Below are positions 8,251 to 25,113 of a stretch of DNA of 39,062 nucleotides, piece by piece. The position numbers were made by a program, and so were the translations under genes. The stretch lies in the IMG/VR virus record IMGVR_UViG_2698536355_000010. One strand, given 5' to 3'. Position 1 is the first letter of the stretch. The number at the start of each line of letters is the position of its first letter. This stretch comes from a virus (Duplodnaviria; Heunggongvirae; Uroviricota; Caudoviricetes). A model generated the notes under the pieces. That model was not told the origin of the DNA. It did no database searches and saw only the letters and a list, made by a program, of their open reading frames with translations.

Positions 8251-8304
8251 TTTGCTGTCCTGTAAATTGGGTTCTGGCGCGGTATCCCGCGCCGTTCAGA
8301 TACA

Positions 8305-8820
8305 TCAGAGGCCGAGGGCGTTGCGGTGCGCTTCCATCAGGTCCACACCGTCCACAATTTCCACCATGTTGATAAGGTCCACTTCATAGAGCACCTCACC
8401 ATTGATGGTCAGCTTCGCGTAGCTGTTGGTACTGGTCACTTTGGTGGTGTTGCTTTCGCCCGTCTTCCACTCACCGGAATCCACTTCTTTGTGACGTCCA
8501 CGCACCACAAGCTCCACGGCCTGCACTTCCCCGGTATCGTCACGCTGGATAGAGCCGGTAAAGCGCAGCTGGATGCCATCCACCGTGGCTTTGCCCATCT
8601 GCTTAAACAGCAGCAGTTCAGTACCACCAATGGAAAATTCTGTGTCCAGCGCACTGTCATCAAGCCCCAGATCCACATCCACTGCCCCCGGCATTCCGCC
8701 GCCGCGATACTTCTCATATTTGCGGGTGAATTTCGGCAGCGTCAGCGACTCAACGATCCCCTGCCAGTTGTTCCCGTCGTTAAACAGGTTCAGGTGTTTT
8801 AATTTGCGTGGTAAAGCCAT
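8305..8820 (-). CDS. FII: major tail tube protein FII
   Basis: 171-aa ORF, position and size of P2 gpFII downstream of sheath gene. Confidence 0.85.
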   Translation of the reverse strand: MALPRKLKHLNLFNDGNNWQGIVESLTLPKFTRKYEKYRGGGMPGAVDVDLGLDDSALDTEFSIGGTELLLFKQMGKATVDGIQLRFTGSIQRDDTGEVQAVELVVRGRHKEVDSGEWKTGESNTTKVTSTNSYAKLTINGEVLYEVDLINMVEIVDGVDLMEAHRNALGL

Positions 8821-8829
8821 GTTGTCCCC

Positions 8830-10002: not shown

Positions 10003-10078
10003 AGTGGCGAACCTCCTGATTGGATTAGGCTTCGCCCTATGTTGAAGTGATTGTGCCTGACAAACAGCTAAGCGCAGT

Positions 10079-10096
10079 TGTACCGTTATTCACACA
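10079..10096 (-). promoter_or_regulatory. candidate Ogr/B-dependent late promoter element (P_F)
   Basis: TGT-N12-ACA dyad tgtaccgttattcacaca centred about 85 bp upstream of FI start; near-identical to dyads at 23283 and 15833. Confidence 0.5.
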
Positions 10097-10144
10097 AAAT
10101 GACGGTATTTGTCTGCTTGCAGGGATAATCAAAATAATGCTGAT

Positions 10145-10711
10145 TCAGGGAGATTCATTGCTCTTATTTGCCGGAAATTTTCTATAAATGGTAGAAACGC
10201 CTACATCAAAAATCAGTGCAATACGCAGTCTTGATTCTCCGGCCTCGAGTAAACGTCCAATCTGTGCCCACTGTTCGGTGGTCAACTTAGGACGGCGTCC
10301 ACCTACTCTGCCTTTAGCACGAGCTGCAGCCAGCCCTGCCCTGGTACGTTCAACTATCAGTTCGCGTTCCATTTCAGCCAGGGCACCCATGACATGAAAA
10401 AAGAAACGGCCCATTGGGGTACTGGTATCAATACTGTCAGTCAGGCTTCTGAAATTCACACCACGCTGGCGCAACTCTTCTATCAGCGTAACAAGATGCC
10501 GCATACTGCGCCCCAACCTGTCCAGCTTCCAGACAACCAGCGTGTCTCCTGCCGATAGTGTCCTGAGCAGTTTTTTCAGCCCCGGTCTGTCGGACTTAGT
10601 GCCACTGATTTTATCCTCAAAAATCCGCTCACATCCCGCGCAGTTCAGTGCATTACGTTGCAAATCGGTGTTCTGGTCATTTGTTGACACGCGTACATAG
10701 CCAATAAGCAT
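10145..10711 (-). CDS. serine-recombinase DNA invertase (Gin/Hin/Pin/Cin family)
   Basis: N-terminus MLIGYVRVSTNDQNTDLQRNAL with catalytic Ser motif and C-terminal HTH; start set at third ATG (10711) which has GGGGGA 5 nt upstream. Confidence 0.9.
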   Translation of the reverse strand: MLIGYVRVSTNDQNTDLQRNALNCAGCERIFEDKISGTKSDRPGLKKLLRTLSAGDTLVVWKLDRLGRSMRHLVTLIEELRQRGVNFRSLTDSIDTSTPMGRFFFHVMGALAEMERELIVERTRAGLAAARAKGRVGGRRPKLTTEQWAQIGRLLEAGESRLRIALIFDVGVSTIYRKFPANKSNESP

Positions 10712-10738
10712 GATCATCCCCCTGAATAAAAACCGGAG

Positions 10739-11248
10739 ATGATGCCAGTTAGCCGTAATCTCTGCATTTTCTTAAACGTTGGTTTGGGAGAAACGATAAA
10801 TAAAGCCTCCGGAGCTATGCAGAAATCGGCCAATGGATCTGATATTTCTGATGTATCAGCCTTCCGAAATGCGCTCCAGTTAGGGACCGCCGCAACACGA
10901 GATGTTGGAGCAGATAATGCCTCGAAGTTACTGGATTTAGACAGCTTCAGGTCAATGATGTCAGGGAATGGCTACATCTACATTCCATGCATTGCGACGA
11001 CAGGAAACCCGGTGAAACTTATGTTGCAGTGGGGAACGGTGGCAACACAAAAGGGAGCTGATGCTGGATATGCCTTACCATTTGCTTTTCCCTATGCAGG
11101 CTTATTTGCGACCGGAAACCGTGGAACATCTGGCTACAATGCCGCGATGAATGTGCGTATTGCCAGCAGAACGCATATCAGTATTCAGAACTGGTCGCCA
11201 TCCGGAGAGGGCACCGAAGATTGTTGTTTTATCGCGCTGGGGTATTAA
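10739..11248 (+). CDS. alternative tail-fibre C-terminal segment (Sv'-like), expressed only after inversion
   Basis: ORF on opposite strand to H ending ...CCFIALGY (H ends ...HFEAIGY); shares A-x-x-RDVG block with H; likely lacks its own start and is read only when fused to the H constant region after inversion. Confidence 0.65.
   Translation: MMPVSRNLCIFLNVGLGETINKASGAMQKSANGSDISDVSAFRNALQLGTAATRDVGADNASKLLDLDSFRSMMSGNGYIYIPCIATTGNPVKLMLQWGTVATQKGADAGYALPFAFPYAGLFATGNRGTSGYNAAMNVRIASRTHISIQNWSPSGEGTEDCCFIALGY
10767..10792. repeat. candidate invertase crossover site (gix/hix-like), right
   Basis: ttttcttaaacg-tt-ggtttgggagaa fits TTnTCnAAAACC-nn-GGTTTTnGAnAA half-site pattern at 17 of 20 defined positions; 56 bp upstream of invertase start. 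Confidence 0.5.
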
Positions 11249-11250
11249 GA

Positions 11251-11661
11251 ATGAATAAATTTTATAAAGGCTCTTTCTATCCGAAAGCACTAAAAGGGGT
11301 ATATATCAGCGCCGGTTCATGGCCTGAAAATGGCGTTGATGTTGATGATGAAACAATGGCAATTTACACAGGCGTAGCGCCACAAGGCAAAACGCTGGGG
11401 GCTGATAAAAATGGTAATCCTGCGTGGATTGATATCCCGCCACTCTCCGCTGAACAACAGATTATTCAGGCTGAACAGAAAAGAACAGTATTGCGTTCTA
11501 TGGCTGATAAGGAAATAGTCTGGAGACAGGATGCTTTTGATGCGGAAATCGCGACGGCAGAAGAAACCGCCGCGTTATCTGAATGGAAAAAATACCGGGT
11601 CTTGCTGATGCGCGTTGATACAGCAAAACCCGTATGGCCTGTCAATCCGCAGGATATTTAA
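11251..11661 (+). CDS. tail fibre assembly protein (Tfa'/U'-like)
   Basis: Starts MNKFYKGSFYP; C-terminus EWKKYRVLLMRVDTAKPVWPVNP is the conserved Tfa C-terminal motif. Confidence 0.8.
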   Translation: MNKFYKGSFYPKALKGVYISAGSWPENGVDVDDETMAIYTGVAPQGKTLGADKNGNPAWIDIPPLSAEQQIIQAEQKRTVLRSMADKEIVWRQDAFDAEIATAEETAALSEWKKYRVLLMRVDTAKPVWPVNPQDI

Positions 11662-11875
11662 CGGGGGCGTTGTAGGTGGTGACATATTCAAGCAGTTCTG
11701 TTGGATATGTCACCGTTGCTGCATCTCGCTCTACGTTAAATGTATCCGCTCCCCAGATAACACACTCCCTCAAAAATGCCTCCACCTCTGGCGAGACTTC
11801 AACCGCATCATCAGGTCGCTCTTGTTCAGAAACATAAAAACCAACGGTCGTTGGGCTGAAATAGATATTCTCCAT
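11642..11875 (-). CDS. tail fibre assembly protein N-terminal fragment (apparently truncated)
   Basis: 77-aa ORF MENIYFSPTTVGFY... directly downstream of H with a Tfa-type N-terminus but no conserved C-terminal domain; overlaps convergent tfa' by 20 bp. Confidence 0.45.
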   Translation of the reverse strand: MENIYFSPTTVGFYVSEQERPDDAVEVSPEVEAFLRECVIWGADTFNVERDAATVTYPTELLEYVTTYNAPVKYPAD

Positions 11876-11877
11876 AT

Positions 11878-13362
11878 TTAGTATCCTATTGCTTCAAAAT
11901 GCAGTGTCGGTGTTTCGCCGAGATTGGGTGTCGTATACGCCACAGTGAATCGCGTTCTTGATACGTCAGCGCCAGAATCAGTATCGCGATGCGTTGACAG
12001 TGATTTTCCGGCCATTGTTGTCTGTTTCGAAAACTCTGAGCTCGCTAGTGTTGCCAGCGTTGCTATTTGTGCATTTGGGAATTGTCTGGGGAAATTAACC
12101 CTGTAGTAATGGGTGTAGTACGTCACCCCACCAAGCACCTGCGCGTTGAAGTTACCAACTGGTGTCAGTGTCACAGTGCCAGCCTGTCGAATCATACCAT
12201 TTGGGAGAATATCCCAGGCAGTTTGTCCGTTTCGCGACATACCAAATGCGGACATGTCCGGGAGTTGATTATTACCGGTTCCGACATCCCGTTTTGCCGC
12301 TTCTCCCAATTGAAGGTATGCGAGAAGACCAGCTACATCCTTTCCACTCAAATTAGTCAGCGTATTGTCCAGCGGTTGTTTACCTGCCAGCGCATTAAGC
12401 ATTGTCGTGGCAAAGTTCGGATCATTCCCCAGTGCCGCCGCCAGTTCGTTCAGTGTATCCAGTGCAGCAGGTGCAGAACCCACCATTGCCGCAATCGCCG
12501 ATTTCACAAAAGCCGTGGTGGCAATCTGTGTATTGTTGACCGACTGTGCCGCAGTAGGTGCTGTTGGCGTTCCGGTGAGTGCCGGACTCGACAACGGCGC
12601 TTTCAGTGCCAGCGCATTGTTAATGGTGGTACTGAAATTCGGATCATTGTTAATGGCTGCGGCTATTTCTTTTAGCGTGTCCAGCGTGGCTGGCGCACCA
12701 TTAATAAGGGCCGTCAGTGCCGCCTGAACAAACGCGGTGGTCGCAACCTGCGTGGTGTTATTCCCTGCCGCTGGCGTTGGCGCTTTGGGGGTTCCGGTAA
12801 ATGTCGGGCTGGCTTTTGGCGCATACTGTGAATGTGGGTCCTGTGCGGCAAGATGTTTTGCCATCAGGTCATCCACGTACACTTTCAGCTCCAGTACCTT
12901 GTCATCCACATACTTGCGGGTTGCCAGCACTACGGCAGGGTCGATTTTCAGGGTGATATTGTCCGTGCTGCTGGTAATCAGCACCATGCGCACGGTCTGG
13001 GTGCGCCCGCTGCCTTCAGCCAGTTGCGGCTTATAGCTTTCCGGGCAGTTGCCCACGGCAATCAATGCTCCGGACTCATCAAACAGGCCCACTTCACGTA
13101 TCCACCAACCGCCCTCGTTTTCAGGGATCACCTGTTCAGCAATAATCTGGCTGCTGTTCTGCGGGTCGATATAGAGCATATTCAGCGCAGCCCGGCGTTT
13201 CTCATTTACCAGTGCAGTCTGCTTTGCGTCCGGCGTTGGCAATGTCCCTCCGCCATCGCCGACCGCCATATGGGTAATTTTTAAAGGCACACCGAGCGCG
13301 GCGGCGCTGGCAAGTTTCGCCGCGCCAATATCCGTCAGCAGGGTATAAAATTTTGTGCTCAT
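11878..13362 (-). CDS. H: tail fibre protein H
   Basis: 494-aa ORF; N-terminal roughly 330 aa resemble P2 gpH (MAVGDGGG, AESYKP...AEGSGR, NELAAALGNDPNFATTM), C-terminal part divergent. Confidence 0.85.
   Translation of the reverse strand: MSTKFYTLLTDIGAAKLASAAALGVPLKITHMAVGDGGGTLPTPDAKQTALVNEKRRAALNMLYIDPQNSSQIIAEQVIPENEGGWWIREVGLFDESGALIAVGNCPESYKPQLAEGSGRTQTVRMVLITSSTDNITLKIDPAVVLATRKYVDDKVLELKVYVDDLMAKHLAAQDPHSQYAPKASPTFTGTPKAPTPAAGNNTTQVATTAFVQAALTALINGAPATLDTLKEIAAAINNDPNFSTTINNALALKAPLSSPALTGTPTAPTAAQSVNNTQIATTAFVKSAIAAMVGSAPAALDTLNELAAALGNDPNFATTMLNALAGKQPLDNTLTNLSGKDVAGLLAYLQLGEAAKRDVGTGNNQLPDMSAFGMSRNGQTAWDILPNGMIRQAGTVTLTPVGNFNAQVLGGVTYYTHYYRVNFPRQFPNAQIATLATLASSEFSKQTTMAGKSLSTHRDTDSGADVSRTRFTVAYTTPNLGETPTLHFEAIGY
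12311..12336. repeat. candidate invertase crossover site, left (inside H)
   Basis: Minus-strand ttctcgcatacc-tt-caattgggagaa matches the right site at 18 of 26 positions (9-bp block ttgggagaa identical), at the same position relative to the RDVG block. Confidence 0.35.
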
Positions 13363-13964
13363 GGATTCACTCTCATTGTGTCAATAACATGGACCACCCC
13401 GCCTTCATGCGCGGTGCCGCCAGAAATAATTGTTTCGTTGATATACGGATAGATCGTGATTTCTTCGCCAAGATAGCTGGCGGCACCCACCCAATGCGGA
13501 CCGCTGGTCTGCAGATTGATGGACATGCCGATCATGTGACGGCTACATGGTTTGGCATCGCTTATCAGTCGCTCAAGTTCCAGATAGGTATCTTCAGTGA
13601 TGCCCTGGTCCTGCACGCCGATATCCAGACGAAACGTGCCCGGTGTCTCTCCGGTCTGCCACCACTCAATAATGCGGATCAGAAAGCCGAACGGCTCCAC
13701 CACCCGACGCACGGCACTGGTGGTCCCTTTATGCTGATGAATATAAAAAGCATCCTTCACCACCTGGCGCTTGACGCTTTCTGTCCAGCCCTCGTCCCAG
13801 CGATCCACAGAGAACGCCCAGGCGAGATAAGGCAGGAAGCTGACCGGACAGGTAGCCGGATTCCACAAGTCACGCAGCGGCACCTGCAGATCAGAAATCC
13901 CGCTACAGGTCTGCGCCAGTCGGCGCTCCAGTGAAGTTGAACCCGGTGGCAGCAGACTATTCAT
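13359..13964 (-). CDS. I: baseplate assembly protein I
   Basis: 201-aa ORF between J and H, P2 gpI position. Confidence 0.8.
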   Translation of the reverse strand: MNSLLPPGSTSLERRLAQTCSGISDLQVPLRDLWNPATCPVSFLPYLAWAFSVDRWDEGWTESVKRQVVKDAFYIHQHKGTTSAVRRVVEPFGFLIRIIEWWQTGETPGTFRLDIGVQDQGITEDTYLELERLISDAKPCSRHMIGMSINLQTSGPHWVGAASYLGEEITIYPYINETIISGGTAHEGGVVHVIDTMRVNP

Positions 13965-14865
13965 CCGTTCCTCCGTTGGTTACGCTCCACTGCGTACATG
14001 ATGCGGCCTGTGTTTTGTTCAGGACCACATCAGCCAGCGGTGAAGCCAGTTCCACACGCTGAACACCCTCAACATGCAGCGCGGCACAAATAGCACTACG
14101 GCGAATATCCCGACCGAGCCGCGTCTGACTGGCGATGTACCTCTGCAGGCTGACTTTTGCCGCTGCCATTACCGGCTCTGCTTCCGGTCCCGGATAAAGA
14201 AAAATGGTGGCTTCCACACGGTACGGGATGATTTCTGCGCTGCGAACCGTCAGACGGTCAGCCACCGGGCGGACGTTCTCACTGTTCAGGGCTTTCTCCA
14301 CCACATCCAGCAAGTCTTTTTCTGCTGTTCCGTCGCCTTCGCGGCTAAGGACAGTCAGCACCACCTCTGCAGGTGCCGGACTGGTTGCACTGGCATCCGC
14401 CACCCGACCGTCGGCGCTTCGGGCATGAAATTCATAAGCGGCAGTTGGTCCCGCAACTGAAAGCCCCTCAAAGGCTGCAGGCACACGCAGGCGTAACGCT
14501 TCATCGCTTTCCATCACTGCTGCAACGGGCGGCACAGCGTCATCATCAGCAGGTGTCACCGTCAGACGTTTCACGTTGTAATTGGCGGCGAGCTGGTCAA
14601 GATCGCCGCCCATCGCGTAAGCCACCATTACCGCCTGCGCGGCTTCGTTAATGCGCTGGCGCAGAAGCAACTCACGGTAAGCGTTCTCCTGCAACAATTT
14701 GGTGACGGGTTCAGATTCCAGTTCCAGCGTACGCATCACAGCCTCCTGTTCATCTTTCGGATGAAGCGCCACAAATTCTGCCTTGCGTGCGGCAAGCAGC
14801 GTCTCAAAGTCCGGCACATCCACAATCTGCGGCGCAGGCAACTGCGAAAGGTCAATCACTGCCAT
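13957..14865 (-). CDS. J: baseplate assembly protein J
   Basis: Start set at internal ATG 14865 (MAVIDLSQLP) giving 302 aa as in P2 gpJ. Confidence 0.8.
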   Translation of the reverse strand: MAVIDLSQLPAPQIVDVPDFETLLAARKAEFVALHPKDEQEAVMRTLELESEPVTKLLQENAYRELLLRQRINEAAQAVMVAYAMGGDLDQLAANYNVKRLTVTPADDDAVPPVAAVMESDEALRLRVPAAFEGLSVAGPTAAYEFHARSADGRVADASATSPAPAEVVLTVLSREGDGTAEKDLLDVVEKALNSENVRPVADRLTVRSAEIIPYRVEATIFLYPGPEAEPVMAAAKVSLQRYIASQTRLGRDIRRSAICAALHVEGVQRVELASPLADVVLNKTQAASCTQWSVTNGGTDE

Positions 14866-15211
14866 TCTCTGCTCCTGTTGATACGGAAAGGGAAACAGGC
14901 ACACCGTTATTACGCCGCCCGGTCAGCTCCACCACCATTGAACCGTCAAAATTGCTGTTAATGGTGATGGAATCCAGCGTCAGCCGTGGCTCCCAGCGAC
15001 TCAGCGCCACATACACTGCCGACATGACCTGCAGGCGTAATGCCGGATTTTGTGGCTGGTCTATCAGTGCCGACAGCAGAGAACCATATTCCCGACGGGC
15101 AATACGGCTACCCTGCGGTGTCAGCAGAATGTCCCGCACCGACTGGCGCAGATGGTCAATATCAGTAATGACTTTACCGCTGGTATTGTTCATCCCGATA
15201 TAAAGCGTCAT
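14852..15211 (-). CDS. W: baseplate wedge protein W (gp25-like)
   Basis: 119-aa ORF MTLYIGMN...; P2 gpW-like. Confidence 0.8.
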   Translation of the reverse strand: MTLYIGMNNTSGKVITDIDHLRQSVRDILLTPQGSRIARREYGSLLSALIDQPQNPALRLQVMSAVYVALSRWEPRLTLDSITINSNFDGSMVVELTGRRNNGVPVSLSVSTGAENGSD

Positions 15212-15786
15212 ACCGGGCCTCCGGTTGTATCGCCGCCTTTCAGGACGCCAGTATGCTCATGGTCGTCAACCACGACTCCGTTGGAACTCATCGCGCCGCC
15301 GCCTTGGGTGACGCCACCATTGATCACCACCTCGCTGTTGATGCGCGTGGTGTCAGCCTCCACCACAAACTGACCGGTTTTGAGGGTGATATTGTCTGCC
15401 GCCTCGATCACCATGGATTTGATACCCCGGACGTACCATCGCCCGGTGGCGGGTTCGTACTCAAACCTGCCGCCGTCCGGGTACTCCGTCACGCAGCCGT
15501 CCACGGAATCCGACGGAGGCGCAAACTGACTGGAGTAGATGGCGGGCAGCACAAAAGCGGTTTCCAGATTGCCCCCCATGCTCAGCACCACCACCTGCTC
15601 ATCCGGCGACGGACACCACCATGTACGGGCACCACCGGCACGCAGCGTCAGCCAGTTAATCCAGTTGGTTTCGAGGTCGCCTGTTTTCACCCGGCAAAGC
15701 CAGTTTTCCCGATCCACTTCGGTCACGGTGCCGGTGCGGATCAGGTTGGTGATAAGGCGCATGATTTCGGTTAGTTGTGCGTTCAT
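15208..15786 (-). CDS. V: baseplate spike/assembly protein V
   Basis: P2 gpV-like; start placed at ATG 15786 (MNAQLTEIMRLITNLIRTG) by alignment to remembered P2 V N-terminus; ATG 15762 is an alternative. Confidence 0.8.
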   Translation of the reverse strand: MNAQLTEIMRLITNLIRTGTVTEVDRENWLCRVKTGDLETNWINWLTLRAGGARTWWCPSPDEQVVVLSMGGNLETAFVLPAIYSSQFAPPSDSVDGCVTEYPDGGRFEYEPATGRWYVRGIKSMVIEAADNITLKTGQFVVEADTTRINSEVVINGGVTQGGGAMSSNGVVVDDHEHTGVLKGGDTTGGPV

Positions 15787-15832
15787 ATGGAAATCATTGC
15801 CTATCGTAAACGACAGTGATATTAAAGAGGTT

Positions 15833-15850
15833 TGTGCAGTCACCCACACA
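15833..15850 (-). promoter_or_regulatory. candidate Ogr/B-dependent late promoter element (P_V)
   Basis: tgtgcagtcacccacaca, TGT-N12-ACA with the same extended pattern and orientation as the P_F and P_O dyads; centre only about 55 bp from V ATG. Confidence 0.4.
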
Positions 15851-15884
15851 AGATGATCATCAAATCTGTTTTGGAAGGATTCTT

Positions 15885-17405
15885 ATGAGTTGCTTAGATC
15901 AATTATCTTCAGAAAATAAAAAATCCCTATTATCATCAGTATTTTCAAAGAGCTATTTCCTCTGGATTGGCTCTGGATTTTCGTACAATTTCGGATATCC
16001 AAGTTGGGGGGCCGTACTTGAAGAAATAGCAAAGCGAATAGAGTACCCGTTAAAATTAGATTCATCACAGCCTCTGCGTGCTGCAGAATTACTTTTAAGT
16101 TATGCGATGAGTGAATCATCAATAAAAGAATATGATTTCAATTCGCTCGTTGCCAGGACGATTATAGATTTAAAAACAGAAACTAAAGAACCAAGATGGC
16201 TTAAAAGATTCAAACTCTTCGCTCCCAATACAATTGTAACAACTAACTGGGATGAGGTGCTTGAAGAAACATTTGAGCATATGGCAAATAAAATCATCAG
16301 AAAGGATCCATTCCCTAAAGTATCAACAAAAGGGAAAAATATCTTCAAAATTCATGGTGACGTCGGAAAACCTGATTCGATTGTTATAACACAAAGTCAA
16401 TACTTTTCTTTTCAGCGCGAAGACACTTATCTTAGCCGAAAAATTTACACATTGTTTTCAGAAATGTCCCCTATATTCATCGGTTACAGCTTAACCGACC
16501 CAAATATAGGTTTCCTTTATGAAGAAGCATTAGCACATCTGCATGGAAAAAACCCGCCAGCATTCATGGTAATTCACCCAGATGCAAACCCTTTAACTTT
16601 CGAGGAGACAAAGTATTTATTTAAATCAAAAAATATACACCTGATTAAAGCAACCATAGAAGACTTCCTTGCAGATTTATCTCAGGAATATAAATCCTTT
16701 AAAGAATCACCTCATCGTTTCAACCTTGAGCACGAACATGTTCTTCCCAAAATAAAAACTGTAATGGATACCGTTACGAAAGGAAAAAAAAATAAAAAAG
16801 CGGAACTAGAAGCCTTATGTCCTCAAAGAGCTGCAAGCTGGGCCGTGACAAAAGCCATAATTGACATTCTAAAGAAACCAATATTGTACATTCAATTCGG
16901 CGGAAAACTTCTTTCTCCAGACAATATTATCCCCTACAGAGAGTTCGATGCTTTAGTTAATGTAGTCATAACACTTAGCAACAATCACGGTTACCCTGAC
17001 GAGCTTATACGTCAAGATTTTCATGCTTCTGTTGTCAAAATGTGCATCGAAACAGAAGGGGTTTGGGACTTCAACTATGCTGAAGTACCTTTCTCTAACA
17101 TTTTAAGAATAAGCCCTAGCCCCGGCACTGAAAGTTTCGACAAAAAAATATCCCATATAATAGAAATTATGCGATGGTCGTCCCCATCTGAAATAGGGAA
17201 GTGCTGGGCAACATGGAATGTATTTAAAGAAAAACAAGATTGGATTAGCCACAGTGATATTGTTGGCATTCTTTCGAAACTTGAAACCGATGGTGACTTA
17301 GAATACCAACCCAGAGATAAAAAATGGCTAAACATCCTGAAAAAATGCCCTCACGCAACGGCTGCAGATATCAAGAGAATTGATACTCTGATAACCCCAG
17401 CTTAG
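15885..17405 (+). CDS. SIR2-like (DHS-like NAD-binding fold) protein with uncharacterised C-terminal domain
   Basis: Motifs FLWIGSGFS (GxGxS), IVTTNWDEVLEE (TTNYD-type), KIHGD, IFIGYSLTDPNI; ATG 15885 preceded by GGAAGGA; gene strongly AT-rich versus flanks. Confidence 0.8.
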   Translation: MSCLDQLSSENKKSLLSSVFSKSYFLWIGSGFSYNFGYPSWGAVLEEIAKRIEYPLKLDSSQPLRAAELLLSYAMSESSIKEYDFNSLVARTIIDLKTETKEPRWLKRFKLFAPNTIVTTNWDEVLEETFEHMANKIIRKDPFPKVSTKGKNIFKIHGDVGKPDSIVITQSQYFSFQREDTYLSRKIYTLFSEMSPIFIGYSLTDPNIGFLYEEALAHLHGKNPPAFMVIHPDANPLTFEETKYLFKSKNIHLIKATIEDFLADLSQEYKSFKESPHRFNLEHEHVLPKIKTVMDTVTKGKKNKKAELEALCPQRAASWAVTKAIIDILKKPILYIQFGGKLLSPDNIIPYREFDALVNVVITLSNNHGYPDELIRQDFHASVVKMCIETEGVWDFNYAEVPFSNILRISPSPGTESFDKKISHIIEIMRWSSPSEIGKCWATWNVFKEKQDWISHSDIVGILSKLETDGDLEYQPRDKKWLNILKKCPHATAADIKRIDTLITPA

Positions 17406-17408
17406 AAT

Positions 17409-17861
17409 TTAGTTATCTTTTGTCATCCACCTCAAGAGAGTGTTTAGAATTATCTGGTTACTCTCTTGGGTTTGTCCCAGCAATCTGCGAGCTGGGTATT
17501 TAATACTTTTGCTTCTTTTACCTATCCGCTCTCTCAATCCGTAGTGGTGAACACGGGCAATGCGCTGTACCTTGCCTTCAAACTGCACGCTGGCAGAGTC
17601 GGCGCTGGCGGAAGTTTTCAGGTATTTTGTGGTGCGCAGCTTTGCAAACATCTGACGTTTGATACGGCCTTTTTTACTGCGTGCTGTTACCCGTCGCGGT
17701 TCATAACTGCTGCCATCTGGATTGCGCTGCATTCTGATATTTTGCTGCTGTGTCCGGCGTAGTTCCTGCGCCAGCTGGCGCATCATGCGGCTTCTTGCGG
17801 CTGGCTCCAGATTCGCCAGCAAGGCACTCAGCCAGTCGTCCACTTTCTGCAGTTCAGCCAC
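17409..17861 (-). CDS. S: tail completion protein S
   Basis: 150-aa ORF in P2 gpS position; its stop lies 3 bp from the convergent SIR2-like stop. Confidence 0.8.
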   Translation of the reverse strand: MAELQKVDDWLSALLANLEPAARSRMMRQLAQELRRTQQQNIRMQRNPDGSSYEPRRVTARSKKGRIKRQMFAKLRTTKYLKTSASADSASVQFEGKVQRIARVHHYGLRERIGKRSKSIKYPARRLLGQTQESNQIILNTLLRWMTKDN

Positions 17862-18306
17862 GTTTCACCGTCCACATTTCTTCAGGTTCATCAGGTTCCG
17901 CTATAGCTTCAACGCTCGACACACTGCCGTCAGTGCTGACCAGCACACGCTCCGTCAGTTGCAGGTTGAGGCTGATATCACAGACATCGTTGCGCAGAAT
18001 ATCCACCTCAAAGGTGAATAGCTTTTCCCGTAACGCCGGGTTATTGATGGCATCGGGCTGGTTATCACGCAGCCACAGCAAAACCGGGGCCATCAGCAGA
18101 TTCTGGTCGCCGCTGAAATCCTCAATCACCACGTTCAGGGTGTAGCGGTACTCCCATGACATGGAGCTGGCCCCCGTGGCAACCAGCGAACCGTTATCCA
18201 CAAACAGATGCAGTTTGTCCGGGTTATTGCGGACATAAGGCACCGCTTTATTGAGGGCGTGGCGCAGGGATTGTGGTTTGTTCACTGTTTCGCTCCTGAC
18301 ACGCAA
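17854..18306 (-). CDS. R: tail completion protein R
   Basis: 150-aa ORF in P2 gpR position. Confidence 0.8.
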   Translation of the reverse strand: MRVRSETVNKPQSLRHALNKAVPYVRNNPDKLHLFVDNGSLVATGASSMSWEYRYTLNVVIEDFSGDQNLLMAPVLLWLRDNQPDAINNPALREKLFTFEVDILRNDVCDISLNLQLTERVLVSTDGSVSSVEAIAEPDEPEEMWTVKRG

Positions 18307-18538
18307 TAATCATGTCCACTTTGTCTGCACAGACCGCCCAGGCGGCCTCCGTTTCATCCAGCAACGCATTCAGATCACCGTTAGTGCGCGGTGCTGCCTG
18401 CTCCAGCCGACACGGCGTCACTCGCGGACAACCACTGACGGTAAGCTGCACCTCCGGTGAGTGCCGGACGTTCCCGCAGCCGGATAATGTCAGCAGGCAA
18501 AGGAGTATCAGCCCAGTGGCGTAAATCCTCGTTCTCAC
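18248..18538 (-). CDS. lysC: outer-membrane lipoprotein spanin (LysC/Rz1-like)
   Basis: Signal peptide plus lipobox LTLSGC; embedded out of frame in the 3' part of lysB. Confidence 0.7.
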   Translation of the reverse strand: MRTRIYATGLILLCLLTLSGCGNVRHSPEVQLTVSGCPRVTPCRLEQAAPRTNGDLNALLDETEAAWAVCADKVDMIIACQERNSEQTTIPAPRPQ

Positions 18539-18809
18539 GTTTCAGTTCCTCGATCCGGCGTTGTCGTTGTCTCAGCTGTGCGCTGGTCTGTTCTGCTTCG
18601 GCATAGAGCCGCGCCTGCTCCCGGTTATTGGTTTCAGTCAGAATGGACAGGCTGATCAGCTGGCTGTTACTCTTTGCCAGTGCCTGGCTTTTGCTCCGAA
18701 GCTCGTCTGCCTGCGTGCTGATGGTCTGGCTGGCATCAGCCAGCCGCCACGTCTGCCAGCCCAGCGCCGCCAGTAATAACGCCAGCACAACCAGCAGCAA
18801 CCGGTTCAT
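18381..18809 (-). CDS. lysB: inner-membrane spanin (LysB/Rz-like)
   Basis: N-terminal TM helix then coiled-coil periplasmic domain; contains the embedded lysC. Confidence 0.75.
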   Translation of the reverse strand: MNRLLLVVLALLLAALGWQTWRLADASQTISTQADELRSKSQALAKSNSQLISLSILTETNNREQARLYAEAEQTSAQLRQRQRRIEELKRENEDLRHWADTPLPADIIRLRERPALTGGAAYRQWLSASDAVSAGAGSTAH

Positions 18810-19183
18810 GCTGCTACCTGTTGCGCCATCTGATTACGGGTGATCCAGAAGGCAATAACGGTCAGCAGATAAAAGACCAGGGTAATAGCCCACCCCGTCC
18901 AGGCGAGACTGACGACAATCAGCAATCGCATCATCCAGCTGATAAATACGTTTTCTTTTCGGGTAATTTTCTTCAGCAAAGATGCCCTCAACTCCTGCCA
19001 GAGCGGGCCGTTCTTAATTAACGCAGCCAGTGCTACCGGAATTACTGCCCATGTCAGCAGACAGGCTACCCAGACACCAGATGCTGCCAGTACCGGAAAA
19101 ATCCCCTGCGGATACACCATTGCGGCGATTAACAGAGCTATCCATAACATCAGAAACAGCCCGCTGATTACTTTCTTTTTCAT
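18806..19183 (-). CDS. lysA: lysis regulatory membrane protein (LysA-like)
   Basis: Multi-TM small protein; start set at ATG 19183 (MKKKVISG...) just after the endolysin stop. Confidence 0.55.
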   Translation of the reverse strand: MKKKVISGLFLMLWIALLIAAMVYPQGIFPVLAASGVWVACLLTWAVIPVALAALIKNGPLWQELRASLLKKITRKENVFISWMMRLLIVVSLAWTGWAITLVFYLLTVIAFWITRNQMAQQVAA

Positions 19184-19184
19184 T

Positions 19185-19697
19185 TCAGTTTGCTCCCTGT
19201 AAGCACCAGGCCATCTCCCGCGCACGGCGGTTATCCAGCCCCTGATTAAACACACCTTTAACATAAACCCAGCGCGGCAACTGTCGGCACGCATCCGCCC
19301 AGAGCCGCTGATTGAGTAATTTCACCAGTGTGGAACTGCAGGCATTGCCCGTTCCCACGTTGAAGGCAAACGACACCACCGCGTCATACACCTTTTGCGG
19401 CGGCTGTTGCTTCACACACCTTTCCAGTGCCCGCTCCACACGCAGCACGTTGGAAATCAGCCCTTCTGCTGCCTGTCGTTCCGTGATTGTTTTGCCGGGA
19501 ATGACGCCCGATGTATTACCAATGCCGTCGGTCCAGACACCTGCACTGCACTGATACGGCTGCAGACGGCAGCCTTCGTAATCGGCAATTAGTTTCAGCC
19601 CCTCCACGGAGGTGTGAAGCTGCTGAAAACCCGGCAACGTAGCTGCAATAGCCAGCACGGCCCCGACAAGGCAGCGTTTAACGATTGATGGATTCAT
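19185..19697 (-). CDS. K: endolysin, phage lysozyme family with N-terminal SAR-type signal anchor
   Basis: EGCRLQPYQCSAGVWTDGIGNT (lysozyme E-D-T block) preceded by hydrophobic CLVGAVLAIAATLPG. Confidence 0.85.
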   Translation of the reverse strand: MNPSIVKRCLVGAVLAIAATLPGFQQLHTSVEGLKLIADYEGCRLQPYQCSAGVWTDGIGNTSGVIPGKTITERQAAEGLISNVLRVERALERCVKQQPPQKVYDAVVSFAFNVGTGNACSSTLVKLLNQRLWADACRQLPRWVYVKGVFNQGLDNRRAREMAWCLQGAN

Positions 19698-19893
19698 AGT
19701 CCTCCCGCGAGATCTGCCCGTCGCGCAGAAGCTGGTAGGCTTTATGTTTGTAGTACCAGTTGATAGCCAGCATCAGCACACCAATCATCAGGCCGCCCAG
19801 CGTTGAGGCATCCTTGATGGACAAATCGCCCAGCCAGGCCAGCACGACGGCGATGCAATACGTGATAAAGGCGCTGATTCGCTCAAGCGTCAT
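19678..19893 (-). CDS. putative holin
   Basis: 71 aa, two predicted TM helices and charged C-terminus, directly upstream of endolysin. Confidence 0.55.
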   Translation of the reverse strand: MTLERISAFITYCIAVVLAWLGDLSIKDASTLGGLMIGVLMLAINWYYKHKAYQLLRDGQISREDYESINR

Positions 19894-19896
19894 AAT

Positions 19897-20103
19897 TCAG
19901 TCCCATAGCTGGACGGTCTGCACGGTGGTGGGGGTGGTCGGAATGTCCGGCAGCTCCACCTGCAGCCCGTGAGGTAAAAAGGGGCCGTATTCGGCAAGCC
20001 CCGGATTTGCCTTCAGTACCTGCTCCGTGACACCCTGCGTGCGCCCGTAATGACGCCAGCAAAGTGCGTCCACCGTGTCATACTGATGCGCACGCACTTT
20101 CAT
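19897..20103 (-). CDS. X: tail protein X
   Basis: 68 aa; YGRT-G--E-VL-ANPGLAE pattern as in P2 gpX. Confidence 0.8.
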   Translation of the reverse strand: MKVRAHQYDTVDALCWRHYGRTQGVTEQVLKANPGLAEYGPFLPHGLQVELPDIPTTPTTVQTVQLWD

Positions 20104-20630
20104 CAGATAAGCTCCACTGTGCAGTGCGGCGCATCCTGCACCCGGCTGATGGCCCAGCGGGCGTCACGCCATAAATCACCGCTTGCTTCCGCCAGTTCCT
20201 CGCCTCGCTTCGCACCGGATGCCGTGGCGTCATAGTCCTGGTAACGTTCGTTGAGCATGGCGCGTGCCCAGCAGTAAACCGCGTTGAAATAGTGCTGAAT
20301 GCGCTCGCTTTTGCCGTCCAGTTGTTCCGCCGGGACTTCTGCCAGCGAGGCATACCCCAGCATCTGCTGGCGTCTGCGAAACTCATACAGCTCTGCGTTG
20401 ACCTCCGAAATTGCCGACAGCGCAACCTGCTTTAAACGCGGCTGCGTCACCGTGCCGTCAGTGCGCATGACACTGCGAAACTCCGACAGGTCCACATCAG
20501 GCCAGAACGGCGTATTTCTGATGATTTCCGCCTGTTCCGGTGCCTGTTCTGGCGCAACAAACTTCATGCTGCTTTCTCCTGAAATAGAGGGCGGTGGACG
20601 GGGTTTTGATGTGGCAGTGCCTTTCGCCAC
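20103..20630 (-). CDS. L: head completion/stabilisation protein L
   Basis: P2 gpL-like (NTPFWPDVD, ELWRDARWAISRVQ); start uncertain between 20630 and internal ATG. Confidence 0.75.
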   Translation of the reverse strand: MAKGTATSKPRPPPSISGESSMKFVAPEQAPEQAEIIRNTPFWPDVDLSEFRSVMRTDGTVTQPRLKQVALSAISEVNAELYEFRRRQQMLGYASLAEVPAEQLDGKSERIQHYFNAVYCWARAMLNERYQDYDATASGAKRGEELAEASGDLWRDARWAISRVQDAPHCTVELI

Positions 20631-20662
20631 CCCGTGCCGCCCGTGCGCGGGGGCACGTTCTG

Positions 20663-21313
20663 TCAGCGGCTGTCATTGCGCAGTCTGCGCTCCAGCTGCT
20701 GTTTGTCTTTTTTCACGCCACAGCGGGGATCGAGCTGTAACGCATGGTTGAAATGATTAAGGGCAGACGCCGGATTGCCTTCACTCAGGACCGCGCCAAT
20801 CGCTTTATGCAGACGCGCCCGTGACTGATCCGGCATATCCAGACCGTCTGTCAGCTCCAGCGTCTGCAGCAACAGATCGGCATCAAAGCCGGTGGCAGCA
20901 AGCATTGCGCTCTGCGCCGCGTCTGCCATTTCCTCTGCCAGCACGGTCTGCACGTTGCGGTTACCCAGCGGCATCACCCAGCCATGACGCAGGGCATGAC
21001 GCCCGATCTCCAGCGCCCCGGCATAATCTCCGGCATCAATGCGCCACAGCATCACGTACATCAGCACGTCATCCTGTTGAGCGCCTCCGGCAGCCAGAAC
21101 GCCCTCCGCCCAGGCGGCATATTTCGGCAGCAGCTCCACCTTTATTTCCGCTTTTTTCACCGTGGACTGAACGCCCTTGAGACGGCGGCGGTCTTCCGCC
21201 AGTTGCAGCAGCATCAGGTCATAGCCCGACGCGTGGCGAACACTGCCGCCCTCACGGGCGGCCTGTTCAGCCTGAACGCGCAGGCGATGCTGCCGTGCGG
21301 GACTCAGGCTCAT
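20663..21313 (-). CDS. M: terminase endonuclease (small) subunit M
   Basis: 216-aa ORF in P2 gpM position between N and L. Confidence 0.8.
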   Translation of the reverse strand: MSLSPARQHRLRVQAEQAAREGGSVRHASGYDLMLLQLAEDRRRLKGVQSTVKKAEIKVELLPKYAAWAEGVLAAGGAQQDDVLMYVMLWRIDAGDYAGALEIGRHALRHGWVMPLGNRNVQTVLAEEMADAAQSAMLAATGFDADLLLQTLELTDGLDMPDQSRARLHKAIGAVLSEGNPASALNHFNHALQLDPRCGVKKDKQQLERRLRNDSR

Positions 21314-21316
21314 GGA

Positions 21317-22375
21317 TTACGCTCCGGTTTCTGCTGCGGCGGCGCTGAAGTCGCCAATCTGGATGTTTTCCACCAGTGCGGCGCAGCGGTAGTCCTCAAC
21401 CACATAGGCTTCGTTAACGGATTCAAAATTTTCAATCCGGTCACGTTTCGGGTTGTCGATAACTGAACGGCGGCGGGTGTCTTCCTGCCAGTAGATGGAC
21501 AGGTTATCCAGACGGGTGATTAGCAACGCATTCGGCGGGAAGAACGGCGCACGCACGGCCTGCAGGCCACCCATGCGTTTCTGACTGATGATCATATCGG
21601 CAGCGAGTTTTTCACTGTTTTCCTGCTCTTTGTTGACCAGCGGGAAATACTTGTCAGACAGCAGTTCACGACCGCAAATCACCACCAGATCGTCATCGTC
21701 CTGGTAGACCACGTCGATAAGCTCATTAACGGCATCCATCACCACGGCGTCCAGGTTGGCATATTCGCCACCTTTACCGACTTTCACCGCGCCCGGTGTG
21801 GTTTCACCGCCCGTGGTGGTGCTGCCCATGACGTGATCCGGTGCATCCTCACGGATTTTCTGCAGCCAGCCTTTATTCACATCCTGCAGCAGCGGGTTTT
21901 CGCTACGGTTGGAGGTTTTCGCACGCTTCACGCCGTTAAAGCCGATCATGATGCGGTCCAGTGCCTGACGTTTCACGATGGCGTTACGGATACGCACCTG
22001 GAAATCCTGAAACTTCGCCCACAGGTCCAGCTTCGCGTAGGTCAGCACCGTGTCAAAGTTAGTCTGCTCGCATTTATATTCCACATCGACCATCAGCGTC
22101 GGATCGACAGGCTCACGCTCTTTCGCGGTGGTATCAGTGGTTCCGGCAATGGTGCTGCCAACACCCAATCCAAGCAGCTGACCGGACTGCTCAGTCACTG
22201 GCGTAACGTTAATCAGCGTCAGGAATGCGGCGGACTGCTGGATCTGGTCTTCCAGCGTCTGCTGTACAGACGGCTCTACGGTGAATTTGCTGGACAGTTC
22301 TTCAACTGCCACACCGTTCAGACGCGCCAGCTGCTGCAGGTAAGCGTTAAAAGCAAAGCGGGTATTCTTCTTCAT
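21317..22375 (-). CDS. N: major capsid protein N
   Basis: 352 aa; TRFAFNAYL...KFTVEPSV and downstream blocks match remembered P2 gpN. Confidence 0.9.
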   Translation of the reverse strand: MKKNTRFAFNAYLQQLARLNGVAVEELSSKFTVEPSVQQTLEDQIQQSAAFLTLINVTPVTEQSGQLLGLGVGSTIAGTTDTTAKEREPVDPTLMVDVEYKCEQTNFDTVLTYAKLDLWAKFQDFQVRIRNAIVKRQALDRIMIGFNGVKRAKTSNRSENPLLQDVNKGWLQKIREDAPDHVMGSTTTGGETTPGAVKVGKGGEYANLDAVVMDAVNELIDVVYQDDDDLVVICGRELLSDKYFPLVNKEQENSEKLAADMIISQKRMGGLQAVRAPFFPPNALLITRLDNLSIYWQEDTRRRSVIDNPKRDRIENFESVNEAYVVEDYRCAALVENIQIGDFSAAAAETGA

Positions 22376-22391
22376 CAGGTTTTGTGCTCCA

Positions 22392-23204
22392 TCAGCAATT
22401 GGTCAGAGTGTCAGCGGGGGCGTTACCGCCTGTTGCACGCTGGCGGTAGTCCTGGCGGCTGTCTTCATGACTCAGCTTATTCACCAGTTCGTTAAAGGCG
22501 GTCTGCTGTGCCTGCAGGGCAGTCTCCAGCTCAGACAGGGATTTTTCGGTACGCACACTCAGGTTTTGCTGCTCAGTGGCGACCAGCTCCACGGCCTTAT
22601 GCACATCAGAGAACCGGGCGTCATCGGACTGCTCTTTTTTGGTAAACAGCGCCGTGACACGGGCAAACAGGGACGGTTTGTCCTCCTGGATTTCTTCCAG
22701 TTCGATCACCGTTTCCTCTGCAGCGGTAAAAAGATTGGCGGGATTCTGCTTGCGGTTTGCCAGCGGGTTATGGGCTGCACTGGCGCTGAATGTCAGCATT
22801 TCAGTGCCCAGACTGGCAGGGTCATCAGTGGCAGCCAGGCCGACCAGGTAGGCTTTGCCCGTATCAGCAAAGTTCGGGCTGACTTCCATAGAGGTGAATA
22901 ATTTCTGGCCTTTTTTCACCAGTTCCACCAGGGACTCCGTTGGCTCAACGTCGGCATACAGCGCCATCTTGCCTGCCAGCGGACCTTCCGTGATTTCTTC
23001 AGCAAACAGCGCCGTCACCTTGCCGTAGCGGTTAAAGGTGCTGTCCGGCAGATAAGACTTGATGTGCTCAAGGTTAATCAGCGCGGTATACACCGCCGGG
23101 TTGTAGCTGGCTGCCATCTGTTCCAGCCATTCACGCTGGATTTCGCGTCCGTCGGTGGTGGCACCTTCCACCCCGATGCGAAAACGCTTTGCTTTCACTG
23201 TCAT
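22392..23204 (-). CDS. O: capsid scaffolding protein O
   Basis: 270-aa ORF in P2 gpO position. Confidence 0.85.
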   Translation of the reverse strand: MTVKAKRFRIGVEGATTDGREIQREWLEQMAASYNPAVYTALINLEHIKSYLPDSTFNRYGKVTALFAEEITEGPLAGKMALYADVEPTESLVELVKKGQKLFTSMEVSPNFADTGKAYLVGLAATDDPASLGTEMLTFSASAAHNPLANRKQNPANLFTAAEETVIELEEIQEDKPSLFARVTALFTKKEQSDDARFSDVHKAVELVATEQQNLSVRTEKSLSELETALQAQQTAFNELVNKLSHEDSRQDYRQRATGGNAPADTLTNC

Positions 23205-23282
23205 GAGCCGTGCTCCGTTAGAAAAAACTTACTGGAGCCTTATGGTTGCGGTGATAGGGGCAGTGAAACAATGCGCGGTATT

Positions 23283-23300
23283 TGTACCGACAACCACACA
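23283..23300 (-). promoter_or_regulatory. candidate Ogr/B-dependent late promoter element (P_O, possibly shared with P_P)
   Basis: tgtaccgacaaccacaca, TGT-N12-ACA dyad centred about 87 bp upstream of O start in the O/P divergent intergenic region. Confidence 0.5.
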
Positions 23301-23346
23301 AACCGCAGGCGGGGAAAGCCTTCATTCAAGGCTGTAGGTTTGTTCC

Positions 23347-25113
23347 ATGAACACCACACTGACACCCGCAGATCTCGATCCCCGTCGGCAGGCCATGCTG
23401 CTGTACTTTCAGGGATACCGCGTAGCCCGCATTGCTGAAATGCTGGGCGAGAAAGTTGCAACCGTTCACAGCTGGAAAAAACGCGACAAGTGGGGTGACT
23501 ATGGGCCGCTGGATCAGATGCAGCTCACCACCGCCGCACGCTACTGCCAGCTCATTATGAAGGAGCACAAAGAAGGGAAAGATTTCAAAGAGATTGACCT
23601 GCTGGCGCGCCAGTCGGAACGCCACGCGCGGATCGGCAAGTTTAACAATGGCGGCAACGAAGCCGACTTAAACCCTAACGTCGCCAACCGCAACAAAGGC
23701 CCGCGCCGTCAGCCGGAAAAGAATGTTTTCACCGATGAGCAGATTGAGAAGCTGGAAGAAATCTTCCATTCCTCCATGTTCAACTACCAGCACCACTGGT
23801 GGGAAGCCGGAAAAACCAACCGCATCCGCAACCTGCTGAAGTCACGCCAGATCGGCGCGACCTTTTACTTTGCCCGTGAAGCCCTGATTGACGCTCTGCT
23901 TACCGGACGTAACCAAATTTTCCTTTCCGCCAGCAAGGCACAGGCCCACGTCTTTAAGCAGTACATCATCGACTTCGCTAAAGAAGTGGAGGTGGAGCTG
24001 AAAGGCGATCCGATGGTGCTTCCTAACGGGGCCACGCTTTACTTCCTCGGCACCAATGCCCGCACGGCCCAGAGTTATCACGGCAACCTGTATCTGGATG
24101 AATATTTCTGGATACCGAAATTCCAGGAGCTGCGCAAAGTGGCTTCCGGTATGGCTATTCACAAAAAATGGCGACAGACCTATTTTTCCACGCCATCCAG
24201 CCTGACACACAGTGCTTATCCGTTCTGGTCCGGTGCGCTGTTCAACCGTGGGCGCAACAAAGCCGATAAGGTGGACATCGACCTGTCCCACAGCAATCTG
24301 GCCCCCGGCCTGCTGTGCGCAGACGGACAATACCGCCAGATAGTCACCGTGGAAGATGCGGTGCGCGGCGGCTGTAACCTGTTCGACCTTGACCAGTTGC
24401 GCATGGAATACAGCCCGGACGAATACCAGAACCTGCTGATGTGTGAGTTCGTGGACGATCTCGCGTCCGTGTTCCCGCTCAGCGAACTGCAGGCGTGCAT
24501 GGTGGACAGTTGGGAAGTCTGGACCGACTTTCATGCACTGGCCCTGCGCCCGTTTGGCTGGCGCGAAGTATGGATCGGTTATGACCCCGCAAAAGGTACT
24601 CAGAACGGCGACAGTGCCGGATGCGTGGTGGTGGCACCGCCAGCCGTACCGGGCGGTAAATTCCGCATTCTTGAGCGTCACCAGTGGCGCGGGATGGACT
24701 TCCGCGCTCAGGCTGACGCCATCAAAAAACTGACCGAACAGTACAACGTGACTTATATCGGTATCGACTCAACCGGCGTTGGTCACGGGGTTTACGAGAA
24801 CGTGAAAGCATTCTTTCCTGCCGTCCGGGAGTTTGTCTACAACCCCAACGTTAAAAACGCCCTGGTGCTCAAGGCCTACGACATTATCAGCCACCGCCGT
24901 CTGGAGTTTGACGCCGGGCACACCGACATTGCGCAATCATTTATGGCAATCCGTCGCGCTACCACCGCCAGCGGCAACCGCCCGACCTATGAAGCCAGCC
25001 GCAGCGAAGAAGCCAGCCACGCCGATCTGGCCTGGGCAACGATGCACGCACTGTTTAACGAACCGCTGCAGGGCGAATCCGCCAATGCCAGCAATATTGT
25101 GGAGATTTTTTGA
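23347..25113 (+). CDS. P: terminase ATPase (large) subunit P
   Basis: 588-aa ORF, P2 gpP-like. Confidence 0.9.
   Translation: MNTTLTPADLDPRRQAMLLYFQGYRVARIAEMLGEKVATVHSWKKRDKWGDYGPLDQMQLTTAARYCQLIMKEHKEGKDFKEIDLLARQSERHARIGKFNNGGNEADLNPNVANRNKGPRRQPEKNVFTDEQIEKLEEIFHSSMFNYQHHWWEAGKTNRIRNLLKSRQIGATFYFAREALIDALLTGRNQIFLSASKAQAHVFKQYIIDFAKEVEVELKGDPMVLPNGATLYFLGTNARTAQSYHGNLYLDEYFWIPKFQELRKVASGMAIHKKWRQTYFSTPSSLTHSAYPFWSGALFNRGRNKADKVDIDLSHSNLAPGLLCADGQYRQIVTVEDAVRGGCNLFDLDQLRMEYSPDEYQNLLMCEFVDDLASVFPLSELQACMVDSWEVWTDFHALALRPFGWREVWIGYDPAKGTQNGDSAGCVVVAPPAVPGGKFRILERHQWRGMDFRAQADAIKKLTEQYNVTYIGIDSTGVGHGVYENVKAFFPAVREFVYNPNVKNALVLKAYDIISHRRLEFDAGHTDIAQSFMAIRRATTASGNRPTYEASRSEEASHADLAWATMHALFNEPLQGESANASNIVEIF

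Follow-up and report, generated by a model that had tools for sequence, protein, structure and literature searches.

Putative activator sites of four late promoters and apparently leaderless V and P operons in a P2/186-like prophage of Escherichia coli

Late operons, activator gene and intergenic dyads

The viral record IMGVR_UViG_2698536355_000010 of the IMG/VR database, a stretch of 39,062 nucleotides that we refer to as the window, contains three short palindromes of the form TGT-N12-ACA ahead of the late genes of a P2/186-like prophage, and an earlier note made from the same DNA had taken these dyads for Ogr-dependent late promoter elements of the P2 type. As read from its sequence, the window is a piece of Escherichia coli chromosome with a P2/186-like prophage from ∼2.85 kb onward, beside ybjL: the first 2.9 kb, in which grxA, ybjM and ybjL are followed by an ogr-like gene, are 100% identical to several complete E. 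coli genomes. Over the late region, Escherichia phage 500465-1 (Peduoviridae, Wadgaonvirus) is 96% identical to the prophage, as are many Klebsiella prophages. Based on open reading frames (ORFs), Pfam matches and alignment to P2, the minus strand carries the late genes in the P2 order, with P and Q divergent from them on the plus strand; the N terminus of P aligns with that of P2 gpP, residue 11 to residue 12. The immunity region is of the 186 type, with a CI repressor that carries the Phage_CI_repr and Phage_CI_C domains (35634–36230). The activator gene, the late operons and the dyads are located as follows.

2856–3074, minus strand: gene of a 72-residue C4 zinc-finger protein of the Ogr/B/Delta family, the presumed activator (C-X2-C-X22-C-X4-C; Pfam Ogr_Delta, 5e-22)
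3165–10002, minus strand: FI operon, with FI, FII, E/E', T, U and D (ORFs; Pfam sheath protein; order as in P2 and in the PGAP annotation of E. coli)
10079–10096, minus strand: putative activator dyad of the FI (tail sheath) promoter, TGTGTGAATAACGGTACA in promoter orientation; the extended TTGT...ACAA spans 10078–10097
11642–15786, minus strand: V operon, with V, W, J, I, tail fibre gene H and the start of the fibre-assembly region (ORFs; Pfam Phage_base_V and Apex for V, Phage_tail_fib for H)
15833–15850, minus strand: putative activator dyad of the V (baseplate spike) promoter, TGTGTGGGTGACTGCACA; centre 55.5 bp from the A of the V ATG
17409–23204, minus strand: O operon, with O, N, M, L, X, holin, lysozyme and lysis genes, R and S (ORFs; Pfam Phage_GPO; annotation of relatives)
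23283–23300, no strand assigned: putative activator dyad shared by the divergent O (leftward) and P (rightward) operons; distance of the centre 87.5 bp to ATG 23204 of O and 55.5 bp to ATG 23347 of P
23347–26147, plus strand: P-Q operon, with the large terminase subunit and the portal (Pfam Terminase_5/6N/6C)

The three 18-mers were found exactly where and as the earlier note had given them. All are perfect TGT-N12-ACA matches in intergenic DNA, upstream of the first gene of a late operon, and the distances from dyad centre to ATG (85.5 bp for FI, ATG at 10002; 55.5 bp for V, ATG at 15786; 87.5 bp for O, ATG at 23204) agree with those noted previously. The bare motif is not enriched in the window, where 13 occurrences were found compared with 10.2 ± 2.9 expected and 19 of 100 shuffles reached 13; the few chance matches that had been anticipated were thus an underestimate. 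By contrast, the extended pattern TTGTR-N10-YACAA exceeds chance, as had been claimed, with 4 occurrences against 0.26 expected and none of 100 shuffles reaching 4. In leave-one-out matrices, each omitted site ranked third or fourth of 78,074 positions. Further, with a matrix built from 109 sites of relatives, from which 18-mers identical to those of the window had been left out, the three sites scored 25.2, 25.0 and 18.9 and were the top three in the window; the next match scored 12.8, and the maxima of simulated 39-kb sequences, used as the null, averaged 11.7 ± 3.5.

Equally good matches scattered in coding regions, which according to the earlier note would have spoken against its reading, were not seen in these scans. 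The sole other extended match, at 27092–27111 (TTGTATAGCTGGGTACACAA) inside an ORF of 148 residues in an accessory-gene hotspot, scored 9.6, and its TGT arm is lost in every nonidentical relative, which marks it as a chance match. A second perfect TGT-N12-ACA, at 23341–23358 (TGTTCCATGAACACCACA), overlies the P start codon; it scored 7.5, is present in only about one-third of relatives and probably arises incidentally from a TTGTGCC-like sequence ahead of the ATG together with the codon for Thr4. A weak match inside gene D (3342–3367) scored 12.8–13.5, within the range of the null.

The dyads are conserved in place. Each of the 80 related FI loci has a perfect dyad in the corresponding place (78.5–85.5 bp from the FI ATG), as do 79 of 79 related V loci, and the comparison of the O/P region covered 39 diverse prophages from different species that carry a perfect dyad (O identity 58–97%). 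The earlier note had also remarked on a common orientation of the dyads relative to their operons. This holds for the three sites of the window, in which TTGTGTG is operon-distal, as it likewise is at the P2 and 186 sites, but not as a general feature: in relatives there is only a mild tendency for TGTG to be distal and TGTA proximal. Because TGTGTG is found on either side in relatives and the shared O/P site must work both ways, we do not consider orientation a defining feature.

The presumed activator is 51% identical to P2 Ogr and 54% identical to 186 B and to PSP3 Pag, with the four cysteines invariant. Its gene follows gene D, as in P2 and 186, and the gap between the two holds a candidate promoter.

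3112–3139, minus strand: sigma-70-like promoter candidate for the activator gene, TTTGCA-16-TATCAT (consensus match only), between D and the ogr-like gene

This candidate lies where the P2 record has the ogr promoter and the 186 record has pB. In 186, pB is repressed by CI; because the prophage in the window has a CI of the 186 type, we propose that its activator gene may be under direct control of the repressor. A scan for sigma-70 consensus promoters detected none on the operon strand downstream of any dyad, which fits promoters that depend on an activator. One sigma-70-like match, TTGTCT-18-AATAAT (10109–10138, plus strand), reads rightward from the FI dyad with its −10 element ∼46–51 bp from the dyad centre and would give a transcript antisense to the neighbouring invertase gene; because such matches occur at chance frequency in the region, we regard it as no more than a curiosity.

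With dyads ahead of FI, V and O and an Ogr/Delta-family activator encoded in the same prophage, we uphold the assignment to Ogr-dependent late promoters of the P2 type and consider it very likely that four late promoters have the three dyads as their upstream activator sites. The activator gene, the form of the dyads, their placement before the operons and the absent −35 element all correspond to what characterises late promoters of this type, and by every feature testable here the elements belong to that family. Two other explanations for the dyads were considered. That they are chance palindromes with no regulatory role would accord with the unremarkable frequency of the bare motif and with the fourth extended match at 27092–27111, demonstrably a chance occurrence that is not conserved in relatives; however, the extended pattern is in excess, the three sites are the three best matrix matches, all of them are intergenic and ahead of the first genes of late operons, and no related locus lacks a perfect dyad in the corresponding place, not even the 32 V cassettes described below, which are otherwise unrelated. 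The conservation data already refute this explanation, and we give it next to no weight. That another regulator binds the dyads, whether host CRP, a PpsR/CrtJ-type protein or phage CI or Apl, is very improbable. Although the TGT...ACA half-sites resemble those of CRP and the sites of PpsR/CrtJ share the bare TGT-N12-ACA formula, the CRP consensus has 10, not 12, bases between TGT and ACA, PpsR/CrtJ is a protein of purple phototrophs and not of E. coli, the dyads coincide in place with the Ogr/B sites annotated in the records of P2 and 186, and they co-occur with an Ogr_Delta gene.

Late control of the P2 type is already well known: the four late promoters of P2 carry a TGT-N12-ACA consensus and depend on Ogr (PMC3931495). 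The unusual feature of the window is the apparent lack of any leader on the transcripts of V and P, two of its four late operons, and the analysis adds to the recognition of the element, itself of a well known kind, a corrected count of the promoters, an explanation of the spacing at V and the prediction of leaderless V and P transcripts.

Predicted promoters and probably leaderless V and P transcripts

In the mechanism that we propose, the 72-residue zinc-finger protein (2856–3074) would, after replication starts, bind each TTGTR-N10-YACAA dyad and recruit the E. coli sigma-70 RNA polymerase, with the dyad centre ∼55 bp upstream of the transcription start. At the target promoters, a usable −35 element would be missing and the −10 hexamer would be weak, marked by A at −11 and T at −7. 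The dyad at 10079–10096 would serve FI to D and that at 15833–15850 V to H, whereas the dyad at 23283–23300 would act in both directions, on O to S leftward and on P to Q rightward. The FI and O transcripts would have leaders of ∼30 nucleotides with a good Shine-Dalgarno sequence; those of V and P would begin at the A of the ATG, and their leaderless state may hold the baseplate spike and the large terminase subunit low relative to the products of the downstream genes. In P2, activation by Ogr at the dyad needs contact with the C-terminal domain of the alpha subunit of RNA polymerase (the rpoA109 phenotype). We infer the binding and activation by the 72-residue protein, the exact start sites and the dosage rationale; the positions of promoters and sites in P2 and 186 that we used come from GenBank feature tables, plus secondary citations.

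A weak −10-like hexamer, with A as its second and T as its last letter, is present at +43.5 to +49.5 from each dyad centre.

10039–10044, minus strand: FI −10-like hexamer CAACAT, +43.5 to +48.5 from the dyad centre
15793–15798, minus strand: V −10-like hexamer AATGAT, −12 to −7 from the A of the V ATG (15786); predicted start 15786
23242–23247, minus strand: O −10-like hexamer AACCAT; predicted start ∼23233–23237
23335–23340, plus strand: P −10-like hexamer TAGGTT, −12 to −7 from the A of the P ATG; predicted start 23347, giving a leaderless large terminase mRNA

Judged by hexamer offset and by the homology of the P hexamer with that of P2 pP, the predicted starts lie +55.5 to +58 from the dyad centres. 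For FI, transcription is predicted to start at ∼10032, leaving a leader of ∼30 nucleotides with the Shine-Dalgarno sequence AGGAGG (10012–10017), and the block AACATAGG is kept at the same offset in 61 distinct relatives. The leader predicted for O is likewise ∼30 nucleotides long, with the Shine-Dalgarno sequence GGAG; here the block GCAA(C/A)CATAAGGC, i.e. GCAA(C/A)CATAAGG, is kept in 38 distinct relatives.

The V dyad had seemed anomalous because it lies only 55.5 bp from the V ATG, and the earlier note had suggested either that V starts further downstream, at ATG 15762, or that the spacing differs. Neither suggestion was borne out. A dyad-to-start distance of ∼55 bp is the usual one, and what is missing at V is the leader: because 55.5 bp from dyad centre to the A of the ATG is the normal distance from dyad to transcription start, the V mRNA would have no leader at all. 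Consistent with this, no Shine-Dalgarno sequence was found before the V ATG, and in the P2 record transcription of V begins at the first letter of its ATG. According to PMC4633059, which refers to Christie and Calendar (1985), few leaderless genes are known in E. coli, and P2 is cited for one of them. Strong evidence came from comparison: in the 79 relatives from IMG/VR whose V is at least 90% identical, the upstream regions fall into 32 sequence families. The spacers between dyad and ATG of the 32 families are mutually only 31% identical, which is essentially random, compared with 88% for V coding DNA, and we attribute this divergence to different accessory cassettes inserted there. Nevertheless, all 32 families have a perfect TGT-N12-ACA centred 55.5 (in most), 56.5 or 57.5 bp from the V ATG, and only two spacer positions are conserved across them, A at −11 (84%, rising to 91% if the families are aligned by the dyad) and T at −7 (81–84%). 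These are the two key positions of a −10 hexamer from which transcription would begin at the A of the ATG, and we conclude that the V mRNA is very probably leaderless in the window, as in P2.

We regard it as very improbable that the V dyad is a normal one but that V is translated from ATG 15762, on an mRNA with a 24-nucleotide leader. An in-frame ATG does exist at 15760–15762, and leaderless translation is inefficient in E. coli (PMC4633059). However, the start at 15786 is homologous to that of P2 V, the first codons from it aligning with the N terminus of P2 gpV (residue 3 to residue 5); with few exceptions the 79 related loci retain ATGAAYGCACAA, and the similarity stops exactly at ATG 15786; the same V start was called by PGAP in a related E. 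coli prophage; and no Shine-Dalgarno sequence precedes 15762. A transcript from 15786 would, moreover, present a 5′-terminal AUG anyway.

The earlier note had recognised promoters for FI, V and O, and these stand, but it had missed a fourth. The dyad at 23283–23300 is also 55.5 bp from the divergent P ATG, and a site shared by P and O is annotated in P2 and 186; the three dyads are therefore taken to serve four late promoters. The P hexamer TAGGTT is homologous to TAGCCT of P2 pP, the last T of which is 7 nucleotides upstream of the P2-annotated start at 3016, and TA(T/G)GTT, part of the block CCGTA(T/G)GTT, is kept at the same offset in 38 distinct relatives. Among the 39 prophages compared, the distance from dyad centre to P ATG is exactly 55.5 bp in 36, whereas the distance on the O side varies from 81.5 to 100.5 bp. 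No Shine-Dalgarno sequence was found before the P ATG in the window. The P reading frame cannot start upstream of 23347 because of an in-frame TAG at 23335–23337, nor can it start at the next Met because residues 11–16 (DPRRQA), which align with P2 gpP, fall within the conserved Terminase_5 domain. The P leader is absent in the clade of the window, whereas two Yersinia prophages have one of 28 nucleotides. Taken together, we think it reasonably probable that the P mRNA is leaderless.

The alternative that P has a leader after all, either from a start a few to tens of nucleotides further upstream or from a separate, unrecognised activator site, with the distance of 55.5 bp reflecting merely the packing of a short intergenic region, is in our view rather unlikely. 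It draws on the 23-nucleotide P leader with a GAGG Shine-Dalgarno sequence of P2 and 186, on the two Yersinia prophages, in which the P ATG is 83.5 bp from the dyad centre, on a weak AGG 9–11 nucleotides upstream of the P ATG in the window and on the fact that the P start site is extrapolated rather than a measured 5′ end. Against it, the P side is fixed at exactly 55.5 bp in 36 of 39 prophages while the O side ranges over 81.5–100.5 bp, and the conserved TA(T/G)GTT, homologous to the P2 hexamer, lies at −12 to −7 from the P ATG; further, the 142-bp O-P intergenic region contains no other dyad, and the weak AGG is itself part of the −10 hexamer.

Several points weigh against activator-dependent, partly leaderless late transcription as we describe it. 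All start sites are extrapolated from the geometry of the dyads and from P2 and 186. The score of the V site alone (18.9) is only about the 95th percentile of the null maxima (18.6), and it is mainly conservation and placement that support this site. In P2 and 186, the late sites are imperfect and TGT-N12-CCA-like, and the perfect TGT-N12-ACA matches in those phages (five in P2 and two in 186) are never at late promoters; because of this, the binding specificity of the activator in the clade of the window may differ somewhat from that in P2 and 186. Finally, it is somewhat surprising that an essential terminase gene should rely on leaderless translation, which in a reporter in E. coli reached ∼10% of the leadered level (PMC4633059).

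Exchangeable cassettes, accessory genes and significance

The junction between S and V is a hotspot in relatives, in which similarity ends exactly at the V ATG. Given this boundary and the 32 unrelated upstream families, each inserted cassette seems to bring its own V promoter, i.e. the dyad and the spacer. In the window, a gene for a SIR2_2 protein of 506 residues (15885–17405, plus strand; Pfam 3.4e-26, PADLOC PDC-S25 8.9e-29, ThsA 6e-25) lies between S and V, divergent from V, with its ATG 35 bp from the V dyad. It takes the place of P2 orf30, is missing at the same locus in phage 500465-1 and in a related E. coli prophage, and is probably an accessory gene with an anti-phage function. We rejected the idea that the V dyad also drives this gene, because the dyad centre is 43.5 bp from the SIR2 ATG and the predicted start would fall inside the ORF.

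The clade to which these observations apply is that of P2/186-like, Wadgaonvirus-like prophages across many Enterobacterales genera. We hold with moderate confidence that, throughout this clade, V is leaderless as in P2, P is leaderless through loss of its 23-nucleotide leader and Shine-Dalgarno sequence, and the V promoter resides in exchangeable cassettes. The loss of the P leader would have the bidirectional activator site set the 5′ AUG directly, and the V promoter would travel with accessory or defence genes in cassettes of which at least 32 unrelated families keep only the dyad, A at −11 and T at −7 and the distance of 55.5–57.5 bp. If true, this would provide natural, widespread, activator-dependent leaderless genes in E. 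coli, useful for studies of leaderless translation and of promoter modularity, and it predicts a leaderless essential terminase gene in a species in which leaderless genes are considered rare. Besides gene V of P2, lambda cI is an example of a leaderless mRNA.

For the prophage itself, the analysis offers a regulatory map of three sites, four promoters, predicted starts and the activator gene, in which the V start is right as called. For P2-like prophages in general, it suggests an annotation rule, by which TTGTR-N10-YACAA 55.5 bp upstream of an ATG that has no ribosome-binding site would indicate a leaderless late gene. The V loci, in addition, form a comparative set in which promoter geometry survives complete sequence turnover beside an accessory and defence hotspot.

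Other accessory genes were observed in the window. Just upstream of the FI promoter, a serine invertase gene of the Hin/Gin type (10145–10717, minus strand) adjoins an alternative tail-fibre C terminus (10739–11248) on the plus strand and a fibre-assembly gene (11221–11661), which suggests an invertible host-range segment (10145–11661); a search for the crossover sites of the invertase gave no convincing inverted repeats. Between portal gene Q and replication gene A, at the position of the old/tin defence hotspot of P2, there are three AT-rich ORFs of 221, 148 and 371 residues (26211–28438, minus strand). Pfam and PADLOC searches with the three returned no matches, and the middle one (148 residues) has relatives in 14 IMG/VR contigs; we consider them a candidate defence system of unknown type. 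A protein of 558 residues with DUF4041 and T5orf172 domains (36251–37927, plus strand), which matches the PADLOC defence model PD-Lambda-1 (2.4e-120), is encoded between the CI repressor and the integrase (38010–39062).

Comparison with P2, 186 and Smp131

A related arrangement has been predicted in Stenotrophomonas phage Smp131, which has TGT-N12-ACA-like sites, P and O promoters at the same coordinates and an Ogr-like CX2CX22CX4C protein (PMC3931495). Smp131 differs from the window in its distant host and rearranged tail operons, and the sites in both are predictions.

Phage 186, the late promoters of which (p12/pV, p32 and pJ) are controlled by B, shares its immunity type with the CI of the window, and 186 B is, as given above, somewhat closer in identity to the presumed activator than is P2 Ogr. 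It has one B site (3798–3817) for the divergent p12 and pV, like the shared O/P site of the window, and the left half of this site, TTGTGTGG, is the same as in the window O site, whereas its right half has CCA where the window has ACA. The 186 homolog of V (orf32) has its site 56.5 bp from the ATG. The P homolog, in contrast to P of the window, has a 23-nucleotide leader and is 78.5 bp from the centre of the site.

In P2, the same four operons (P-Q, O-S, V-G and FI-D), in the same gene order, are transcribed from pP, pO, pV and pF under the control of Ogr, to which the presumed activator of the window is only 51% identical. The P2 activator sites are centred 55.5–58 bp upstream of the start, a geometry like that predicted for the window, and the P2 record gives one site ahead of pF, one ahead of pV and one (3057–3087) that the divergent pO and pP have in common, each of these two starting 55.5 bp from the centre of the shared site. 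The V start of P2 is on the V ATG, as we predict for the window, and the −10 hexamers of pP are homologous. The two differ in the sites themselves, which are imperfect in P2 (TGT-N12-CCA at pF and pO, TGT-N11-ACA or TGT-N12-CAA at pV) and perfect and more symmetric in the window. Anyone scanning the type phages P2 and 186 for exact copies of the textbook consensus would thus overlook their true sites. The window and P2 differ, finally, at gene P, which in P2 has a 23-nucleotide leader with a Shine-Dalgarno sequence, whereas in the window the P ATG coincides with the predicted +1.

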